A stretch of 64,000 nucleotides of DNA from Betaproteobacteria bacterium (GTDB lineage Bacteria > Pseudomonadota > Gammaproteobacteria > Burkholderiales > Casimicrobiaceae). The position numbers and the translations under genes are program-made. Positions 1,117-64,000 of this stretch are shown here, piece after piece; position 1 is the first letter of the stretch, and every line of letters begins with the position of its first letter. The notes beneath the pieces were generated by a model. That model had not been told where the DNA came from and ran no database searches. It saw only the letters and a program-made list of their open reading frames with translations. Location: NCBI GenBank assembly GCA_013298765.1, contig JAAFJA010000007.1, positions 1-64,000 of the forward strand, given 5' to 3'.

Positions 1117-1254
1117 GCTCCGATTGTAGGATTGCCTCTCCCTGTGGGACCAGCCGTAGGCGCAGGACGCAACGCAGTTGCGGTCGGCGAGCTATGCGAG
1201 AGATGCGCTAAAGCGCACAGAGGTCGCGCGGAACGCGCGGGTGAGGGAAATCGC

Positions 1255-1340
1255 ACCTTGGTATACGTTGCTGCAGTGCAGTCGCTTTACCCTCACCCAA
1301 CGCTTTGCGTTGACCTCTCCCAAAAGGGAGAGGTTGGGCG
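1255..1340. repeat. GC-rich REP-like palindromic element (the CTCTCCC...GGGAGAGG / CCCTCACCC family)
   Basis: It contains cctctcccaaaagggagagg and ccctcacccaac. Related copies occur at about 7803-7930, 21296-21376, 40288-40332 and 63045-63175. Confidence 0.7.
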
Positions 1341-4136: not shown

Positions 4137-5765
4137 TCAAATGGCAATAGCGTTGAAACTCAACCCAAACCGCGCCAAATACTTGCGCAACCGATCCGCG
4201 TCGTTCACTTCGCTTCGCTCTTCGCGCGAGACGTTGTAGAGCTTGCGACCCGCATCCGAGAGCGTGCGGCTTTGTTTGCACACGCGAATTACCGCTTCGA
4301 GTTGCAGGCGATCGAAGAGATCGAGTTTTGCGAGTGCGGCTTCGTCGACATAGCGTTCGAGCTCGACGCTTTGCGCGTTGCTCGTCGATGCGTCTTTCGC
4401 CCAAAGCCATTTGAGCCGCTCGATTTCCGCATCGACCACGGCCTCGGTGATGCGCCCGCCGTCGGCGAGTGTGGCCATGCGAGTCACACTTGCGGATAGA
4501 TCACGAAAATTGCCTCTCCACGCGCCATTTACACCGGACGCGAAGCTCATATAACGCTTTTTCGCTTCTACATTGAATCGAGCCTGTTGCCCGATATCTT
4601 TTGGGCTAAGTGACAATAGGTAATCTACGTTCGGCTCAATGTCTTCGGGTCGCTCGGCAAGGCCGGGCAAGGTGTAACTCCAGAGATTGATCCGCGCGAA
4701 CAAATCCTCTCGAAACTCGCCGCGCGCGACCGCATCGCGCAGATCGAGATTGGTGCCTGCGATCAACTGGAAATCGCTCGCAACTTCTTTGTCTGCACCG
4801 ACTGGATAGAAGCGTTTGTCTTCAATCGCTTTGAGCAGCATCGCTTGTTCATCAAGCCCGAGCGTGCCGATCTCATCGAGAAAGAGCACGCCTTTGTCAG
4901 CGCTGCGAAGCAAGCCCGCGCGATCGGCCATCGCGCCCGTGAACGCGCCCTTTTTGTGACCGAACAAGGTGGACGCGGCGCCGTCGCCCATGAGCGTTGC
5001 GCAATTCACTTCAACGAATTCGCCAGTGACGTTGTGTCGCTCTTTCTTCAATTCGTAAATGCGCTTCGCGAGGAAACTTTTCCCCGCGCCGGTGGGGCCG
5101 GTCAGCAACACTGGCGCACTTGATCGCAGCGCCACGTGTTCAATCTCATCGATCAAGGCGTTGAAGCGTTTGTTCTTCGTTGCGATGCCGCTTTTCAAGT
5201 AGCGCTTCGCATCGTCCGTCGCGATCGCAAAGCGTTTCGCAATCGCGTCATAGCGCGAAAGATCAAGATCGATCAGCGCATAGCTGCCCGGATCGCCTTC
5301 GCGCTGCGGGCGTGGCGGCGCGGTTTGCAGGAGCACACCCGGTAGCACGCGCGCCTCTGCAAGCAAGAACAAACAAATCTGCGCGACGTGCGTGCCCGTC
5401 GTGATGTGAATCCAATAATCCGATTGCTCCGGATCAAGCTTCTGCGCATGCGCCCAATCAAAGAGCGCGCCATACATCTCACCGAAATCCCAAGGATCGC
5501 GCACGGGCAGCGCATGCAAGGTGACGCGCGTATCCGGGCTCACGAGCGCGATGTCTGCCACCACTTGCTCCGCAATCCGCTCATGCCCCGGCGAATGCAA
5601 CAGCTCAATCGCATCAATCGCGACATCTTCGTGCTGCACGATAGAAATGGTCGGCCGCCACTTTTGCCAACGACCACGACCGCCGCCTGCATCAAGCTGC
5701 GAGCCTAGGAAGCCGATGACGGTGGTGGGTTTGGTGGTTGGTTGTGACACTCTTTGCTGCTCCAT
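4137..5765 (-). CDS. rtcR: sigma54-dependent transcriptional activator RtcR (CARF-like N-terminal domain + AAA+ domain + C-terminal HTH)
   Basis: Collinear with E. coli RtcR throughout (WRPT, HITTGTHVAQIC, IDLDLSRY, GPTGAGKSF, GAFTGA, FLDEIG, ATWRGNFRELSASVTRMAT, NDADRLRKYLARFGL). The start was chosen at MEQQRV (5765). An alternative upstream ATG lies at 5798. Confidence 0.9.
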   Translation of the reverse strand: MEQQRVSQPTTKPTTVIGFLGSQLDAGGGRGRWQKWRPTISIVQHEDVAIDAIELLHSPGHERIAEQVVADIALVSPDTRVTLHALPVRDPWDFGEMYGALFDWAHAQKLDPEQSDYWIHITTGTHVAQICLFLLAEARVLPGVLLQTAPPRPQREGDPGSYALIDLDLSRYDAIAKRFAIATDDAKRYLKSGIATKNKRFNALIDEIEHVALRSSAPVLLTGPTGAGKSFLAKRIYELKKERHNVTGEFVEVNCATLMGDGAASTLFGHKKGAFTGAMADRAGLLRSADKGVLFLDEIGTLGLDEQAMLLKAIEDKRFYPVGADKEVASDFQLIAGTNLDLRDAVARGEFREDLFARINLWSYTLPGLAERPEDIEPNVDYLLSLSPKDIGQQARFNVEAKKRYMSFASGVNGAWRGNFRDLSASVTRMATLADGGRITEAVVDAEIERLKWLWAKDASTSNAQSVELERYVDEAALAKLDLFDRLQLEAVIRVCKQSRTLSDAGRKLYNVSREERSEVNDADRLRKYLARFGLSFNAIAI

Positions 5766-7802: not shown

Positions 7803-7930
7803 AACGAGTGATTCCCTCCCCTTCAAGGGGAGGGTCAGGGTGGGGATAGTTTTCTCTGCCTCCTATCGACCGAAAACCATTCCCCTCCTAGCCTCCCCGT
7901 TGAAGGGTGAGGAACCCGCAAAGCATCGGA
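7803..7930. repeat. REP-like GC-rich palindromic element (two units)
   Basis: It contains ccctccccttcaaggggagggtcagggtgggg and cctccccgttgaagggtgagg, which belong to the same family as 1255-1340 and 40288-40332. Confidence 0.7.
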
Positions 7931-21295: not shown

Positions 21296-21376
21296 CCCTC
21301 TCCCGCAGCGCGGGAGAGGGCTGGGGTGAGGGCGGTCGATCCAATGAATCGAGTGTCCTCCCTCCAGCCCCTTAAC
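21296..21376. repeat. REP-like GC-rich palindromic element
   Basis: The sequence is ctccctctcccgcagcgcgggagagggctggggtgagggc...cctccctccagcccc. Confidence 0.7.
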
Positions 21377-40183: not shown

Positions 40184-40287
40184 ACTCGCGCGAACAGTTA
40201 CACAAGAAATAGTCAGCGTCATTCTGCGAAATCAGCGTAATCCGCGTCAAAGGAATCAACGCGCCGAAGCGCTATTGAATCCCGCTG

Positions 40288-40332
40288 AACCCCAACCCAC
40301 CCTAACCCTCCCCTTGAAGGGGAGGCATCAAT
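40288..40332. repeat. REP-like GC-rich element (ccctccccttgaaggggagg)
   Basis: Its core is the same as the 7812-7830 element. It lies upstream of ppc. Confidence 0.65.
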
Positions 40333-60031: not shown

Positions 60032-60454
60032 TTATTTTTCTGTATTTGATTCTGGGGCTAGCCAGTTTTCAATTTGCAGCGCGGGAACGCGCATGAACTC
60101 ACTCTCGTTATTGGTGATGAGCGTGAGTCCTTCGCTGCGTGCGTGCGCTGCGATATGCAGATCATTGACGCCGATGGGCGTACCGGCCCGCTCTAGCGAG
60201 GCTCTGATCGCGCCGTAGTGCGCTGACGCTTTCGCGCCGTACGGCAAGACTTCAAGCCGGCTACAAAAATCTTCAACGATCGAGAGATTTGTGTTCCTGC
60301 GTTCGCTTTTCTCCGCGCCGTGTATGAGCTCCGCCAGCGTAATCGATGAGATTGCCATTCGTCCCGCGTTCTCATTAAAGCGAACACGCGCGACCTCGGG
60401 GCGCTTTTTGATGACATAGATCACGATATTCGTGTCCAGAAGGTAGCGCAGCAT
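60032..60454 (-). CDS. vapC: type II toxin VapC (PIN-domain ribonuclease)
   Basis: 140 aa. The N-terminus MLRYLLDTNIVIY carries the first PIN Asp. Other acidic residues are conserved. Confidence 0.85.
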   Translation of the reverse strand: MLRYLLDTNIVIYVIKKRPEVARVRFNENAGRMAISSITLAELIHGAEKSERRNTNLSIVEDFCSRLEVLPYGAKASAHYGAIRASLERAGTPIGVNDLHIAAHARSEGLTLITNNESEFMRVPALQIENWLAPESNTEK

Positions 60455-60460
60455 AGGCAG

Positions 60461-60694
60461 CTACAGCGTGTCGCGGTCAGCTTGCGTCTGCAATGCGCGC
60501 GTATCCATGAAGTCATCGCTGACTGTCTCAGTGGCCGAGAAAAAGCTATCCCACGACGCACCAGCGGGCGCAATGATTCGCTCAACGCCGCGCGCGCGCA
60601 CGTCCACATGCTTCACGCCCTCCGGCATGCGAAGCTCCGCCGGCAGGCGAACCGCTTGTGTGCGGTTGTTGGTGAAGATTGTGCTGGTGGTCAT
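60461..60694 (-). CDS. vapB: type II antitoxin VapB (AbrB/SpoVT-type swapped-hairpin)
   Basis: 77 aa with TNNRTQAVRLPAELRMPEGV. It lies immediately upstream of vapC with a 6-nt gap. Confidence 0.75.
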   Translation of the reverse strand: MTTSTIFTNNRTQAVRLPAELRMPEGVKHVDVRARGVERIIAPAGASWDSFFSATETVSDDFMDTRALQTQADRDTL

Positions 60695-60888
60695 TTCGAC
60701 GAGGGCGGAGATAAGAATGCTAAGTCGTATATGGCAATTGTATATTGCAGTCGTGTCGACAGTCTTGCGTGTAACGAACGTGTGCTTGCATTACCCGCAA
60801 AATAATCGCAAACTGTATCGCTCATTGATATATAAATTATTGAAAAACAACAAAAGATTCACAACATTTACTATGCGAATGCGCGTGA

Positions 60889-62220
60889 ATGAAACGAGCC
60901 ATAACCGACCTTCTAGCATCCGACGGCCCGCTCTCGGCACCAGAGGCGGCGCGACGCTTGGGCGTTGACCCGCTGACGATTGCGCGGCAAGCACGCGCGT
61001 CAGCGAGTCGTGTTCTTTCGCTTGGACGCGGCAAAAACACGCGCTATGCAGTGCCCGAGATCGTGGTCACTGGCGCGGCTCAATGGCCGCTCTTTTGGAT
61101 TGACGAGAACGGCCGTGTCACCGAATTCGCAACCGCGTCGTTCGTCAAGCCGCAAACCGTGCATGTGTATGGCAGCGGTATCAACGATGCGTCGCGCGGA
61201 GAGGTCCCGTGGTTTCTATTGCCGCTGATATTGCGCGGCTACCTTGGGCGCGCCGCGCGGTTTCGCTTGGGCGCTGTCGTTCAGTCGTGGGATAGTCACC
61301 CCGAGCGCTGGACGCTCGCGCAGCATGTTTTTGCAATGCAATCGTCCGCGCTTGAACATGCGGGAGCAATCCTCATGGGCGACGATGCGGTTAGCGCTTG
61401 GCAAGCGGCGCAGCAACAAAAGCCGTACCCCGATTCGCCGGAAGCGCTCGCGCAAACGTACGATGCGCTCGCGCATGACGCGATGTCGGGGCGCGTCGCG
61501 GGATCAAGTGCGGATGGGGAGCAGCCTAAATTCAGCACGCGTGTCGTCGATACTAATGGCAACATTCGCGAAGTGTTGGTTAAGTTCTCGCCCCCGCGCG
61601 GCACACCGTTTGGCGAACGTTGGAACGATTTGCTCCACGCCGAAGCAATCGCCGCCGACGTGTTACGTGACCATGGCTTCGCAGTCCCGAATACCCGAAT
61701 CATTCGCAGCGAAAAGCGCACCTATTTCGAATCGGTGCGCATCGATCGCATCGACGCAACTGGACGGCGACATCTGTTACCGCTTCATGCCGTTCACGCC
61801 GCATTTCTTCCAGGGTCGCAACAACACTGGGCTGCGACCGTTGCACAACTCGCCGCGCAAAAACGCATCACCTACCATGCGGTCGCTGCGACGCAAACGC
61901 TCTACGCTTTCGGACAACTCATCGGGAACACCGATATGCATTTCGGCAACTTAGGCATGATCGCCGAGTCGCCGCAGGAAATCGCAAAAGGGCGTTTCAA
62001 ACTCGCTCCGTGTTACGACATGCTGCCGATGCGGTTCGCGCCTGGGGCGCATAGCGATTTGGAGTACACGGCGTTTGGTGTGGAATTGAATGCAGCGTTG
62101 CCAGAGGGCGTCGCAAGCACTGCGCGCGCCATGGCAAAAGAATTTTGGCGGCGCGTTTCTGATGAAACACAAGTGAGCGCGAGCTGGCGCGAGTTCGCAC
62201 TTGGACGCGCTGCCGCTTAA
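60889..62220 (+). CDS. HipA-like Ser/Thr kinase with an N-terminal HTH domain (YjjJ/HipH-like toxin family)
   Basis: 443 aa. An N-terminal HTH-like region (SAPEAARRLGVDPLTIARQARA) precedes a HipA-like core with the catalytic-loop motif GNTDMHFGN. It is preceded by an AT-rich promoter region. Confidence 0.7.
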   Translation: MKRAITDLLASDGPLSAPEAARRLGVDPLTIARQARASASRVLSLGRGKNTRYAVPEIVVTGAAQWPLFWIDENGRVTEFATASFVKPQTVHVYGSGINDASRGEVPWFLLPLILRGYLGRAARFRLGAVVQSWDSHPERWTLAQHVFAMQSSALEHAGAILMGDDAVSAWQAAQQQKPYPDSPEALAQTYDALAHDAMSGRVAGSSADGEQPKFSTRVVDTNGNIREVLVKFSPPRGTPFGERWNDLLHAEAIAADVLRDHGFAVPNTRIIRSEKRTYFESVRIDRIDATGRRHLLPLHAVHAAFLPGSQQHWAATVAQLAAQKRITYHAVAATQTLYAFGQLIGNTDMHFGNLGMIAESPQEIAKGRFKLAPCYDMLPMRFAPGAHSDLEYTAFGVELNAALPEGVASTARAMAKEFWRRVSDETQVSASWREFALGRAAA

Positions 62221-64000
62221 GCCTTCGCAAACTCTGTCCGATGCGCAATCCATCGCGCTAGAAACGCTGCGCGATGGAATGCCGGGTCGTTATCGAGTTG
62301 ATTTGCGGCATTGCGCGCGGCTTCGACGAGGTCGATGTCTTCTTCGATGTTCGCGTAGCGAAGCCCCGGTACGCCGGACTGCCTTGGGCCAAGCAATTCG
62401 CCAGGGCCCCGAATGCGCAGATCTTCTCTGGCGATCACGAAGCCATCGGTGGTTTCGTAGATGACTTTGAGGCGTTGCTTGGCGGTGTCGGAGAGTTTGT
62501 CGGCGAAAAGCAGAATGCAAGTGGACGCCGCACTGCCGCGCCCCACGCGTCCGCGTAGCTGATGCAGTTGCGCAAGACCGAAGCGTTCCGCGTGTTCGAT
62601 CACCATCCAACTTGCGTTCGGTACATCGACGCCGACTTCGATGACGGTGGTCGATACGAGCACTTGTACCTTGTTTTCGATGAAGGCTTGCATGATTTCC
62701 GCCTTCTCTTCGGCTTTCATGCGACCGTGCAAGAGCGCGACCTTGACGTTCGGCATCGCTGTGACGAGCTCTGTGTAGAGCGCGGTTGCGTTTTGCAGCT
62801 CGATTTCCATTTTGTCGCTCTCTTCAATGAGCGGACAAACCCAATACGCTTGCGCGTCGGCTTGCGCGGCAGCGTAAATGCGTTCGGCAACCTCGCCGCG
62901 GCGTTTTTCGGAGACGAGTTTGGTGACGATCAGTTGTCGGCCGCTTGGGATTTCGTCGATGACTGAAACATCGAGGTCAGCGTAGTAGCTCATCGCGAGC
63001 GAGCGTGGAATGGGGGTGGCGCTCAGCATTAATGTGTGGGGGGCGAGTTGCTCCCTCCCGTTCAACAGGAGGGCGGGGGTGGGGATGGGGTTGTCTTCTG
63101 GCGCGTTAAACCGGACGCCAACTCCCTCACCCGCCCTTCGGGCACCCTCTCCCAGAGGGAGAGGGACGGTTTTCGAGCGCAATCGCAACCGCTGCTCCAC
63201 GCCAAATCGGTGCTGTTCATCTACGACCACCAAGCCCAATCTTGCAAACGACACTTTCTTCTGAAATAGCGCGTGCGTACCGATGGCGATCTGTGCTTCG
63301 CCTCGCTTGCACTTCTCCTGTGCGGCCTTGAGCTCCGCCGCGGTGAGCGAGCCGGCAAGCCAGGTGAGCTGCACGGGCAAATCTTTGAGCCAGTGCGAGA
63401 GCTTGCGAAAGTGCTGCTCGGCCAGCAGCTCTGTCGGGGCCATGAACGCGACCTGGTAGCCCGCCTCGACACAGGCGAGCGCCGCCAGCGCGGCGACGAT
63501 GGTTTTTCCGCTGCCTACATCGCCTTGAAGTAGGCGTGTCATCGGCACCTCGCGGGCGAGATCGCGCAGCACGTCGGCGACTGCGCGTTCCTGAGCGGCC
63601 GTGAGCGTGAACGGCAAACGCTGCATCATCAATGGTGTGATGAGCTGCGTGGGGCTGATCGATGGCGCGCGCTCGGCGGCGCGAAGCGTTTTCGCATCTT
63701 TGAGCGCGAGCTGTTGTGCGAGTAGCTCATCAAACTTGATACGCCGCCATGCGGGATGCGTTCGCGTTTCAAGCGCGGCAATCGCGTTCACATCGGTGGG
63801 CGCATGGAGCGCGGCAAGCGTCTCCCCCCACTGCAGCAGTTTCATTGAATCTCGCGCCGACGCTGGCAACAGTTCCGACTGCCACTCACGAACCTTGAGC
63901 GCTTTGCTCGCGAGCGTGCGCAATGCTGCCTGAGGAATTCCCGCAGTGGACGGGTAGACAGCCGTAAGCGCTTTCGAACCACTTAATTGGGGCTCAATCT
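62217..64000 (-). CDS. recG: ATP-dependent DNA helicase RecG, partial (N-terminus lies beyond the window end)
   Basis: Helicase motifs are conserved: GDVGSGKT (I), VVDEQHRFGV (II), SATPIPR (III) and the C-terminal QLRGRVGRG (VI). It carries an extra segment of about 35 aa between motifs II and III that derives from a REP element. Confidence 0.9.
   Translation of the reverse strand, partial: IEPQLSGSKALTAVYPSTAGIPQAALRTLASKALKVREWQSELLPASARDSMKLLQWGETLAALHAPTDVNAIAALETRTHPAWRRIKFDELLAQQLALKDAKTLRAAERAPSISPTQLITPLMMQRLPFTLTAAQERAVADVLRDLAREVPMTRLLQGDVGSGKTIVAALAALACVEAGYQVAFMAPTELLAEQHFRKLSHWLKDLPVQLTWLAGSLTAAELKAAQEKCKRGEAQIAIGTHALFQKKVSFARLGLVVVDEQHRFGVEQRLRLRSKTVPLPLGEGARRAGEGVGVRFNAPEDNPIPTPALLLNGREQLAPHTLMLSATPIPRSLAMSYYADLDVSVIDEIPSGRQLIVTKLVSEKRRGEVAERIYAAAQADAQAYWVCPLIEESDKMEIELQNATALYTELVTAMPNVKVALLHGRMKAEEKAEIMQAFIENKVQVLVSTTVIEVGVDVPNASWMVIEHAERFGLAQLHQLRGRVGRGSAASTCILLFADKLSDTAKQRLKVIYETTDGFVIAREDLRIRGPGELLGPRQSGVPGLRYANIEEDIDLVEAARNAANQLDNDPAFHRAAFLARWIAHRTEFAKA
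63045..63175. repeat. REP-like GC-rich palindromic element embedded in-frame within recG
   Basis: It reads ctccctcccgttcaacaggagggcgggggtggggatgggg...ccctctcccagagggagagggac. On the minus strand it translates to ...TVPLPLGEGARRAGEGVGVRFNAPEDNPIPTPALLLNGREQ... inside RecG. Confidence 0.7.

Follow-up and report, generated by a model that had tools for sequence, protein, structure and literature searches.

That a structure-forming repeat can persist in a conserved gene by virtue of its translatability is already known from the Rickettsia palindromic elements (RPEs) and from tagged REPs in DNA-repair genes. The RPEs, reportedly described by Ogata et al. in 2000, are A/T-rich and about 100–150 bp long. 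A second kind of dispersed repeat, the BoxC / PIT elements, is said to have been described early on by Bachellier et al. in the 1990s and by Hoyne et al. in 2000. The published pattern of the BoxC/PIT/TM family is CCCTCNCCC-N3-6-GGGNGAGGG-N3-GGGNGAGGG, i.e., a 9-nt C-rich stem, then a complementary G-rich stem and a tract that mirrors the purine stem with one mismatch at most, and all 23 copies in E. coli K-12 are intergenic (PMC4666352). REPs with a GTAG/CGTC tag also occur inside genes, where singletons and dimers encode 20–80 aa (Di Nocera, De Gregorio and Rocco 2013, PMC3733652); they are strikingly frequent in genes of DNA replication and repair (uvrA, uvrB, uvrD/rep, polA, recBCD, dnaE2), and in the view of these authors they are tolerated rather than functional.

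Here, we analyzed a repeat-derived insert in the recG gene of a free-living Casimicrobium-like betaproteobacterial lineage. The window, i.e., the whole stretch of DNA considered, comprises 64,000 nucleotides, and recG lies at its right-hand end. Most probably the insert is a passenger at the level of DNA that the helicase tolerates because the loop concerned is permissive, and not a domesticated protein module. The comparison with related loci (L numbers below) and with the systems above was used to weigh this reading against its alternatives.

Structure of the recG locus

The recG reading frame runs on the minus strand off the window end, with its stop codon at 62217–62219 and its first 145 codons beyond that end. 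The window translation matches the complete protein (P0001, 738 aa) at 100%, contains the Pfam domains RecG_wedge, DEAD, Helicase_C and RecG_dom3_C, and aligns with E. coli RecG (PDB 9wm0) at E 2.6e-167. Between helicase motifs II and III it reads DEQHRFGV EQRLRLRSKTVPLPLGEGARRAGEGVGVRFNAPEDNPIPTPALLLNGREQLAPHTLML SATPIPR without a stop.

62217..64000, minus strand: recG coding sequence, partial in the window (open reading frame and translation)
63198..63221, minus strand: DEQHRFGV codons, helicase motif II (translation; invariant among 36 homologues)
63003..63023, minus strand: SATPIPR codons, helicase motif III (translation; columns S471-R477 invariant)
63045..63176, minus strand: in-frame insert between motifs II and III, 132 nt or 44 codons (SKTV...REQL), composed of an inverted BoxC/PIT/TM-type pair and a spacer

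Translation and alignment agree with the preliminary description that the insert sits in frame inside recG between these two motifs, and all RecG helicase motifs are intact despite it. Motifs II and III are separated by 58 aa in this protein, compared with 22 aa in E. coli RecG (9wm0), and not by the approximately 52 and 17 aa first given; the excess of about 36 aa was right. In the HMMER alignments, residues 422–461 stand opposite only 4 residues of the T. maritima protein (1gm5) and likewise of E. coli 9wm0. Related organisms yielded three further, independent assemblies with this very insert (L001, L002 and L006), and it is therefore no assembly artefact.

An AF2 model of moderate quality (mean pLDDT 69) was used for local secondary-structure context. 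It has a helix at residues 412–419, no secondary structure and pLDDT < 50 at 423–460, and a strand at 466–471, the low loop pLDDT being weak evidence of disorder because some conserved segments also fall below 50. As modelled, the insertion site is the connection from the helix after motif II to the β-strand leading to motif III. With the usual RecA-fold topology, the loop would lie on the face of the first RecA-like domain that points away from the ATP cleft, where it is presumably disordered and harmless.

Judged by its sequence, the insert is an inverted pair of BoxC / PIT / TM "intrastrand triplex motif" units, for which formation of a triplex by the single-stranded DNA is predicted from the published motif.

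63124..63165, minus (coding) strand: repeat unit 1, CCCTCTCCC-TCT-GGGAGAGGG-[TGCCCGAAGGGC]-GGGTGAGGG (exact hairpin pattern)
63091..63123, minus strand: spacer between the units, 33 nt (7/33 positions differ from L001)
63053..63090, plus strand: repeat unit 2, CCCTCCCGT-TCA-ACAGGAGGG-CGG-GGGTGGGGA-TGGGG (nhmmer E 2.7e-8)

Unit 1 is ordered as C-stem, G-stem, a 12-nt mini-hairpin in the position of the second loop, and a mirror "third strand" (GGGTGAGGG) that by inspection mirrors the purine stem at 9/9 positions; only 1/42 of its positions is changed relative to L001. Its first stem, CCCTCTCCC-TCT-GGGAGAGGG, fits the published pattern exactly, while that of unit 2 has one mismatch and belongs to a CCCTCCCC/GGGGAGGG sub-family; a hairpin-only HMM of another, second sub-family matches the unit 1 hairpin weakly (E 0.03). 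Unit 2 has the published second-loop length of 3 nt (CGG), and its mirror triads number 7/9 in the window and 9/9 in the orthologues L001 and L006 (by inspection). The architecture of unit 1, with a mini-hairpin of 12–14 nt before GGGTGAGGG, is by inspection common to the copies at 1239–1334 and at 4403–4534 of L012.

Hairpins are found at 63145–63165 (CCCTCTCCC-AGA-GGGAGAGGG) and 63053–63073 (CCCTCCCG-TTCAA-CAGGAGGG), and the G-rich arm at 63070–63083, part of a G-rich run to about 63093, pairs with the C-rich arm at 63124–63137. The predicted RNA fold of the insert consists of hairpin, mini-hairpin, arm pairing and hairpin, with –61.6 kcal/mol and z = –2.65, and 0/200 shuffles were equally stable.

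Relationship to other copies

The four other elements listed in the window are all intergenic, the first of them being placed between the minus-strand genes 328–1116 and 1351–2109:

1239..1334, unstranded: intergenic copy, GGGTGAGGG ... CCCTCACCC, 14-nt mini-hairpin, ACCTCTCCC-AAAA-GGGAGAGGT (weak HMM match, E 0.097)
7812..7915, unstranded: intergenic inverted pair, more closely related to unit 2 than any other copy in the window (nhmmer E 8e-14 for 7812–7855 and 1.5e-8 for 7915–7871)
21296..21375, plus strand: intergenic copy followed by a C-rich partner arm (nhmmer E 5.7e-10 with the second sub-family profile)
40286..40326, minus strand: single intergenic unit of the unit 2 sub-family (nhmmer E 1e-9 for 40325–40286)

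The preliminary description placed the recG segment in one family with the intergenic elements at about 1255–1340, 7803–7930, 21296–21376 and 40288–40332, and pattern and profile searches agree in supporting this kinship. The hairpin pattern CCCTCNCC-N3-9-GGNGAGGG occurs three times in the window (at 7814, 21296 and 63145) vs. 0.00 times in 100 shuffles. A family profile HMM, built from 12 copies of other genomes with neither recG copies nor copies from the window, gave four matches in the window, with the recG insert (63050–63094) at E 2.7e-8. A plain blastn-short search with the insert against the window returned marginal matches only (best 35 nt at 83%, E 1.8), and family membership therefore needed the pattern and profile searches. 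The BLAST alignment between 63052–63086 and the pair at 7812..7915 covers 35 nt at 83% identity. In its strict form, the published TMECO pattern fits 21296–21332 alone, and there only if a first loop of 7 nt is allowed.

Outside the window, an exact 21-mer has 12 occurrences in 7 related loci. Among the clade units, if a second loop of 3 nt is assumed, the third tract has its non-G position in mirror image to the one in the purine stem in 21/21; as tabulated, the mirror tract is exact in 14/21. In a set of 3,772 E. coli genomes, the element also aligns weakly with about 9,000 sites that lack annotation.

Loop states among relatives

Outside the Casimicrobium-like clade the motif II–III loop has 18–22 aa, and within it either 22–25 aa (empty) or 54–85 aa. 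Several subtypes of the repeat occur there, and short remnants as well. The inserts of the orthologous RecG proteins are all built from this BoxC/PIT/TM family; an equivalent insertion dissimilar to the intergenic repeats, named in the preliminary description as evidence against its reading, was not found among them. Parsimony on the loop states requires 19 changes when the NJ tree is used, and never fewer than 15 across 200 bootstrap trees. Repeat pairs are also read through in the pbpC genes of relatives, at three or more sites, as well as in other ORFs.

A possible explanation of this pattern, if not a likely one, is that a single early invasion of the loop, or a small number of them, was followed by deletion, divergence, gene conversion from copies elsewhere in the genome, and homologous recombination that carried filled and empty alleles from lineage to lineage, which together made the patchwork. 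recG is indeed mosaic, and the loop marks the exact point at which the divergence between L001 and L006 rises abruptly, from about 8% to about 20%; short remnants such as TPSPLEGE together with symmetric small deletions indicate ongoing decay. In sequence, the "empty" alleles of 22 aa (GEQxL) look like the element's right end. On the other hand, empty alleles keep a conserved resident linker (QQDSERxL, xSSDExL) that is missing from the filled ones, and are therefore unlikely to be deletion products. The QRSTPSP junction of L010 is held in common with another RecG group, but no extended recombination tract that would explain the shared junction was seen around the L010 insert. A single old event is also difficult to reconcile with the minimum number of changes, which holds in every bootstrap tree, and with a distant RecG clade of different synteny in which a separate inverted pair occupies a slightly shifted position in this loop.

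At the other extreme, the RecG II–III linker could be a genuine recurrent landing site for BoxC/TM repeats, with repeated independent insertions in at least two RecG clades, which we think is unlikely. The insertion point would then lie 2–3 codons upstream of the conserved (A/V)PH codons, pairs of filled, empty and remnant alleles would record the insertion and excision chemistry of the repeat family, and the inserts might act as intragenic recombination breakpoints.

As a separate observation, PLPL and PSPL peptides were considered as products of different reading phases, hence of independent insertions. Inspection of the codons does not bear this out: the alleles compared all have the G-rich stem in the phase GGA-GAG-GG ("GEG"), and the PLPL/PSPL difference is one of loop length.

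Element ends and mobility

With regard to the hallmarks of a MITE (terminal inverted repeats and a target-site duplication), the element is as a whole an inverted repeat. No consistent direct repeat or target-site duplication was found around the inserts, the only candidate being a 4-nt GAGC in L005 that is too short for significance, and no conserved outer terminus was found that would fix the exact ends of the element. That the insert is a REP/REPIN proper, i.e., a REP doublet mobilised into recG in trans by a RAYT tyrosine transposase, is quite improbable. Two inverted palindromic units with a spacer can form one long hairpin, the window contains several copies, most of them intergenic, and intragenic REP dimers are on record (PMC3733652), all of which such an origin would explain. 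However, neither GTAG nor CGTC adjoins the stems, and among the outer flank positions of 26 canonical units, –1 alone is prominent (T in 62%). Moreover, REPINs replicate as a unit, whereas the spacers here are wholly different between copies of one genome: the copies inside L011, L012 and L032 have repeat units in common and unalignable spacers. A tblastn search with the E. coli RAYT sequence (verified against 4er8) gave no match in the window and 87 related loci (1.37 Mb), which counts as a weak negative, each genome being covered in small part only, and Holder et al. (2015) found no transposase tied to the BoxC/PIT/TM family (PMC4666352). With the tag missing and the spacers not conserved, the original assignment to REPs had to be replaced by one to BoxC/PIT/TM (PMC4666352).

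Selection and divergence

The exact insert is known from only three orthologous sequences, which sets the scope of the following comparisons. Between the window and L001, the recG flanks have dS 0.75, dN 0.061 and ω 0.08, and the insert has dS 0.13, dN 0.13 and ω about 0.96. Within the insert, 4/80 positions are changed in the motif parts vs. 11/52 in the spacer and junctions (Fisher p 0.009), and two of the four motif changes form a C-G to G-C swap in the unit 2 stem relative to L001/L006, i.e., they are compensatory. The divergence of the insert (p about 0.06–0.12) is low compared with about 0.45 at flanking synonymous sites. An initial interpretation of its low dS as pure nucleotide-level constraint was tempered after mosaic recombination was found in recG: the left half of the insert is surrounded by a tract of low divergence between the window and L001 (about –180 to +75 nt), and part of the low insert divergence could be owed to a recent transfer by recombination and not to constraint. 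The contrast between motif and spacer then comes mainly from the right half (3/38 vs. 11/41). There is no detectable selection on the insert peptide, and it is the DNA motif (stems, mirror tract, compensatory change) that is conserved.

Motif conservation of this kind might be taken as a sign of function at the nucleic-acid level, with hairpins, triplexes or G-quadruplex-prone tracts modulating recG expression (translation pausing, mRNA stability) or making the locus a site of programmed recombination or instability, but it is expected anyway from the element's own persistence or from homogenisation by conversion. We consider such a function highly improbable. The stable mRNA structure, the coincidence of the L001 vs. 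L006 breakpoint with the insert, and the association of the family with local instability reported by Holder et al. (PMC4666352) would be in line with it; on the other hand, presence and absence vary among close relatives with conserved RecG, a promoter and terminator scan of 62800–63400 found none, and an Rfam scan of the whole window returned one tRNA only, with no match at the insert. PIT elements tested in vivo also gave no promoter, terminator or polymerase-blocking effect (PMC4666352, introduction).

Finally, it is hardly credible that the repeat peptide was co-opted ("domesticated") as a functional RecG surface loop, e.g., a partner-binding or regulatory one, as the preliminary description proposed, since its retention in frame in three diverged lineages (flanking dS 0.46–0.82), the strong purifying selection on RecG (ω 0.08–0.10) and the long loop kept here by many relatives are outweighed by a dN/dS of about 1 in the insert vs. 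0.08 in the rest of recG, an amino-acid identity of about 80% that is below the 90% of the flanks, substitutions that avoid DNA motif positions and not particular residues (motif positions being more conserved than spacer and junctions), tolerated in-frame deletions of 6 nt, close relatives with empty loops, other subtypes or unrelated spacer peptides, repeats read through in other genes, and a loop predicted to be without structure.

Discussion

The reading of the recG insert as a tolerated passenger accounts for the above as follows. The anatomy of the insert, its family membership, its position, the selection pattern and the polymorphism among relatives are established. The repeat is made of C/T and G/A runs and is almost free of stop codons, and its G-rich tracts are read in the phase that avoids the TGA of GGGTGAGGG; having few stops and a length that is a multiple of three, it is therefore expected to be read through as a loop of 36–40 aa. 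This loop, rich in Pro, Leu, Gly and Glu, is probably disordered, and RecG remains under strong purifying selection around it. The repeats presumably reach recG by the family's own dispersal mechanism, and their survival there would reflect the permissiveness of the site. The family appears to be active in this lineage, and in the Casimicrobium-like clade the loop has probably been filled, emptied or re-filled many times with different repeat sub-families. Given that such repeats are also read through at several points of pbpC and in other genes, recG would be one permissive site among several.

Two practical consequences arise. Annotators should expect low-complexity loops of repeat origin, rich in Pro, Leu, Gly and Glu, in the proteins of this clade, and the filled, empty and remnant alleles of recG constitute a natural data set on the movement and decay of such repeats.

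Comparison with known systems

The BoxC/PIT/TMECO elements (PMC4666352) have the same three blocks as the insert, i.e., C-rich stem, G-rich stem and mirror tract (CCCTCTCCC / GGGAGAGGG / GGGTGAGGG). Like the repeats described here, they form inverted pairs of two different unit types, are multi-copy with no associated transposase, and undergo small deletions in palindromic pairs that leave the hairpin possible. In contrast to the intergenic copies of E. coli K-12, a pair is found here in frame in recG and, in relatives, pairs are found inside pbpC; a position between genes has been described for the E. coli copies but does not define the structure of the family. In unit 1, a 12-nt mini-hairpin stands in for the 3-nt second loop of the published pattern, and unit 2 departs as a CCCTCCCC-TTCAA-GGGGAGGG sub-family. 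Our literature search for intragenic BoxC/PIT/TM copies found none in the library covered.

REPINs (Bertels and Rainey 2011, PMC3116915) resemble the insert in consisting of two inverted units and a spacer that can form one long hairpin, but they are tagged and share their spacers among copies, and they are mobilised by a RAYT, a Y1 HUH transposase whose gene typically has the repeats on either side; here tag and common spacer are missing, and the 1.37 Mb covered gave no RAYT match. The tagged intragenic REPs differ by the GTAG/CGTC tag that is missing here, and the study that described them (PMC3733652) does not report turnover of one site across a clade; recG is absent from its main text and from its supplementary text files, including the table of intragenic REPs.

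The RPEs of Rickettsia work alike, as palindromic repeats that lie in frame in conserved genes and are translated into an additional surface segment while the function of the gene is kept, and their family is likewise also present in intergenic DNA. The recG insert behaves in this way, being a dispersed repeat in frame with helicase motifs intact and flanks at ω 0.08, which is a likeness of mechanism and not of sequence; the sequences are presumably unrelated, and the Rickettsia hosts have reduced intracellular genomes. Homology to RPE-1 to RPE-8 we take to be implausible, given the G/C-rich composition of C/T and G/A runs and the different host. To our knowledge, no clade is known in which RPEs have repeatedly settled in one and the same loop. 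Relative to all these systems, what is new is the repeat class, which in the literature searched is intergenic only (as stated for E. coli K-12), the free-living betaproteobacterial host, and a single RecG loop with at least about 15 state changes, and it is this recurrent use of one loop that is the only unusual aspect of the locus.

Repeat insert in recG

The recG gene is encoded on the minus strand and its open reading frame and translation extend from 62217 past the end of the window; the C-terminal 593 residues of P0001 (a 738-aa RecG of an NCBI assembly) are 100% identical to the window product. Motif II (DEQHRFGV) is separated from motif III (SATPIPR) by 58 residues (EQRLRLRSKTVPLPLGEGARRAGEGVGVRFNAPEDNPIPTPALLLNGREQLAPHTLML) vs. 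22 in E. coli RecG (PDB 9wm0), and in HMMER alignments with RecG of E. coli and T. maritima (1gm5), query residues 422–461 face just 4 residues. The preliminary description had correctly placed a repeat element inside recG between these motifs and its excess of ~36 aa was right, while the spacer lengths it gave (~52 vs. ~17 aa) were slightly off. The 132-nt in-frame insert (63045–63176) consists of:

63124–63165, minus strand, unit 1
63145–63165, hairpin CCCTCTCCC-AGA-GGGAGAGGG
63124–63137, C-rich arm, complementary to the G-rich arm
63091–63123, spacer between the units
63053–63090, plus strand, unit 2
63070–63083, G-rich arm, its G-rich run continuing to ~63093
63053–63073, hairpin CCCTCCCG-TTCAA-CAGGAGGG

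The insert mRNA was predicted to fold as hairpin, mini-hairpin, arm pairing and hairpin (– 61.6 kcal/mol, z = – 2.65), and 0/200 shuffles were equally stable.

The insert belongs to one repeat family with the intergenic elements, as had been claimed. Its hairpin pattern occurs 3 times in the window and not once in 100 shuffles, and a scan of the window for C/T-rich hairpins returned the family solely in recG and where the preliminary description had located it. As an independent test, a profile was built from 12 units of other genomes, leaving out any from recG or from the window itself; it matched 7812–7855 (E 8e−14), 40325–40286 (1e−9), and 7915–7871 (1.5e−8) as well as the recG insert at 63050–63094 (2.7e−8). 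Unit 1 matched a second sub-family profile over the hairpin alone (E 0.03), and has a 12–14-nt mini-hairpin between the G-stem and GGGTGAGGG in common with intergenic 1239–1334 and with L012:4403–4534 (a related locus). The other four window copies are all intergenic; a long ORF over 1314 was rejected because it is a spurious reading in another frame, with a real gene on either side.

Family identity

BoxC repeats, known since the 1990s, are the same as PIT (potential intrastrand triplex) and TM/TMECO elements (Holder et al. 2015, PMC4666352). The published TM pattern, CCCTCNCCC-N3-6-GGGNGAGGG-N3-GGGNGAGGG, was counted 3,610 times in 262 proteobacterial genomes; E. coli K-12 has 23 copies, intergenic without exception, and in five of the arrangements two unlike unit types form an inverted pair (PMC4666352). 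The family lacks an associated transposase and is tied to local instability (PMC4666352).

The window copy at 21296–21332 fits this pattern with a 7-nt first loop. With the second loop set at 3 nt, the third tract has its odd base at the position mirroring the purine-stem A in 21/21 units (window and loci L001–L032), a count that takes in a minority sub-type with a shifted A, the exact mirror as tabulated being 14/21; the third-tract A/T and the purine-stem A shift jointly (position 3 with 3, 4 with 4). A triplex-type constraint would be expected to produce mirror symmetry, and the three-block covariation fits such a constraint, beyond a hairpin alone. Because each insert unit has at least four runs of three or more G with short loops (unit 2, 63067–63093, plus; unit 1, 63124–63165, minus), a G-quadruplex is an alternative to the triplex, its possible site being the template strand in unit 2 and the mRNA/coding strand in unit 1.

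As the copy at 21296–21332 fits the TM pattern and the clade units show the mirror symmetry, the recG insert appears to be an inverted pair of two BoxC/PIT/TM units, both somewhat degenerate: the second loop of unit 1 has 12 nt, and unit 2 keeps 7/9 mirror triads in the window and 9/9 in orthologues. The original REP label is fair in a loose sense, but the defining features fail. Neither a GTAG/CGTC tag nor a conserved terminus was found at the BoxC/PIT/TM-type units examined, spacers differ between copies of the pairs, and, as a weak negative, no RAYT homologue was found in 1.37 Mb of window and related loci (partial genomes). The family assignment needs renaming to BoxC/PIT/TM.

RecG loop across relatives

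By its RecG homologues, the window falls in an uncultured clade of betaproteobacteria around Casimicrobium, and the common gene order (A2M-like gene, recG, optional hipA-like gene, prfA etc.) shows the recG loci to be orthologous. Between prfA and recG, the window (60032–62220) carries a variable cassette that differs among relatives, being absent in L003, with a hipA-like and a FAD-binding oxidase gene in L001 and a PIN pair in L002. Its ORFs in the window are:

60032–60454, minus strand, PIN-domain toxin-like
60461–60694, minus strand, small upstream ORF beside it
60889–62220, plus strand, HipA_C-like

Outside the clade the motif II–III spacer has 18–22 aa (31–37 aa in a few unrelated exceptions). 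Inside it, empty alleles have 22–25 aa with a conserved resident linker (e.g., QQDSERVL) and filled ones 54–85 aa, in every case with BoxC/PIT/TM-type repeats of several sub-types: PLPLGEG...GVRxN...IPTP...PLKGRE (window type), PSPLAGEGWGEG...PLPQPLPxxGGGE, or PPPGGEGLGERE...PSPQPSPPGGGS. Short remnants, e.g., TPSPLEGE, also occur. The 22-aa empty loops (L009:8284–8349, P0015–P0018) read RARG-GEQ(A/E)L-APH, and their GAGCAA...CTCGC resembles the right end of filled alleles (GGGAG-CAA-CTC-GC).

Three assemblies have the orthologous insert with identical junctions, L001 (89% aa identity), L002, and L006 (both 86%), while L005 has the spacer and one hairpin in common with it, together with a different first unit and one extra hairpin. 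In L006 (11234–11395 vs. window 63024–63197), and likewise in L002, each unit has lost 6 nt in frame (GTCCCT, CCCGCC); as the two deletions sit symmetrically, the pair is still foldable. Palindromic pairs with small deletions that leave the hairpin possible were likewise described by Holder et al. (PMC4666352).

Filled and empty alleles are interleaved in a neighbor-joining tree of the RecG core, where parsimony gives 19 changes; at least 15 are needed in each of 200 bootstrap trees and randomised tips need at least 26. L086 (3569–3781), from a more distant RecG clade with 58% identity and different neighbouring genes, carries an inverted pair of its own in this loop, stopping three codons before the conserved VPH (VPHQLMM), whereas no repeat motifs occur in the 36-aa loop of its relative L087 (4177–4284). 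The RecG loop may be a genuine hotspot of insertion, or a few old alleles may have been shuffled by deletion, conversion, and recombination; the 22-aa empty loops may be deletion footprints instead of never-filled sites.

Selection and recombination

Between the window and L001, the recG flanks (530 codons) have dS 0.75, dN 0.061, and omega 0.08, vs. dS 0.13, dN 0.13, and omega ~0.96 in the insert (45 codons), where synonymous differences are fewer (Fisher p = 1e−5). Thus, the peptide is without detectable amino-acid selection while its DNA changes slowly. Motif parts differ at 4/80 positions, spacer and junctions at 11/52 (p = 0.009); two of the motif changes, both in hairpin 2, together turn a C-G pair into G-C, and a third results in G-U pairing on the mRNA strand.

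Among these lineages, recG has a mosaic structure. Over 6 kb upstream and 5 kb downstream, the divergence between L001 (8122–8295) and L006 (11234–11395) rises from ~8%, a level covering the 6 kb upstream including the recG 5′ half, to ~20% exactly at the loop, a single case that looks like a recombination breakpoint at or beside the repeat. Given this mosaicism and a low-divergence tract between window and L001 (about – 180 to + 75 nt), recombination instead of constraint may partly explain why the left unit diverges so little, in which case the motif-vs.-spacer contrast depends mainly on the right half (3/38 vs. 11/41).

Loop structure and read-through

AF2 modelled P0001 with moderate confidence (mean pLDDT 69, pTM 0.56). 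Insert residues 423–460 (pLDDT 28–34) have no secondary structure in the model and lie between a helix (412–419) and the strand (466–471) ending in motif III. The low confidence is weak support for a disordered loop, since other parts of the model score low too. In the RecA-like fold, the connections from helix to strand are found across from those strand ends that bear the motifs; this topology would make the loop protrude on the side facing away from the ATP cleft.

The units consist of runs of C/T and G/A, and 3/6 frames are open in the insert and 1–4 of 6 in intergenic copies. In the codon listings inspected, G-rich tracts read GGA-GAG-GG, a phase that avoids the TGA in GGGTGAGGG. Survivors would be only copies of multiple-of-three length in a permissive loop, which is a survivorship filter and not evidence of design. 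Domestication of a REP element as a RecG surface loop, as first proposed, is not supported, as peptide selection was not detectable; the best explanation is a DNA-level passenger that a permissive linker tolerates, the lineage being one whose genes this family often enters.

The same repeats in other genes

Repeat pairs were also found in frame at at least three alignment sites within pbpC (PBP1C), upstream of recG and on the minus strand in each locus (L011:1958–4495, L012:2030–4567, L032:977–3592, L006:1962–4520, L005:2143–4569), in some lineages and not in others, and other long ORFs in the flanks of the orthologous loci contain pairs too. Having genes decorated in frame with this repeat is therefore characteristic of the lineage and not special to recG. 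Within one genome, recG and pbpC copies are of one unit sub-type with unrelated spacers. Another type of peptide derived from repeats (FVVSLSNH...STSSPRTE, FDKLRTSG) is present in pbpC as well.

Such decoration by BoxC/PIT/TM-type repeats has parallels in the RPEs of Rickettsia and in intragenic REPs (Di Nocera et al. 2013, PMC3733652). The latter, among whose published cases recG is absent, are overrepresented in replication/repair genes (uvrA, uvrB, uvrD/rep, polA, recBCD, dnaE2), and Di Nocera et al. argue for their tolerance, not function (PMC3733652).
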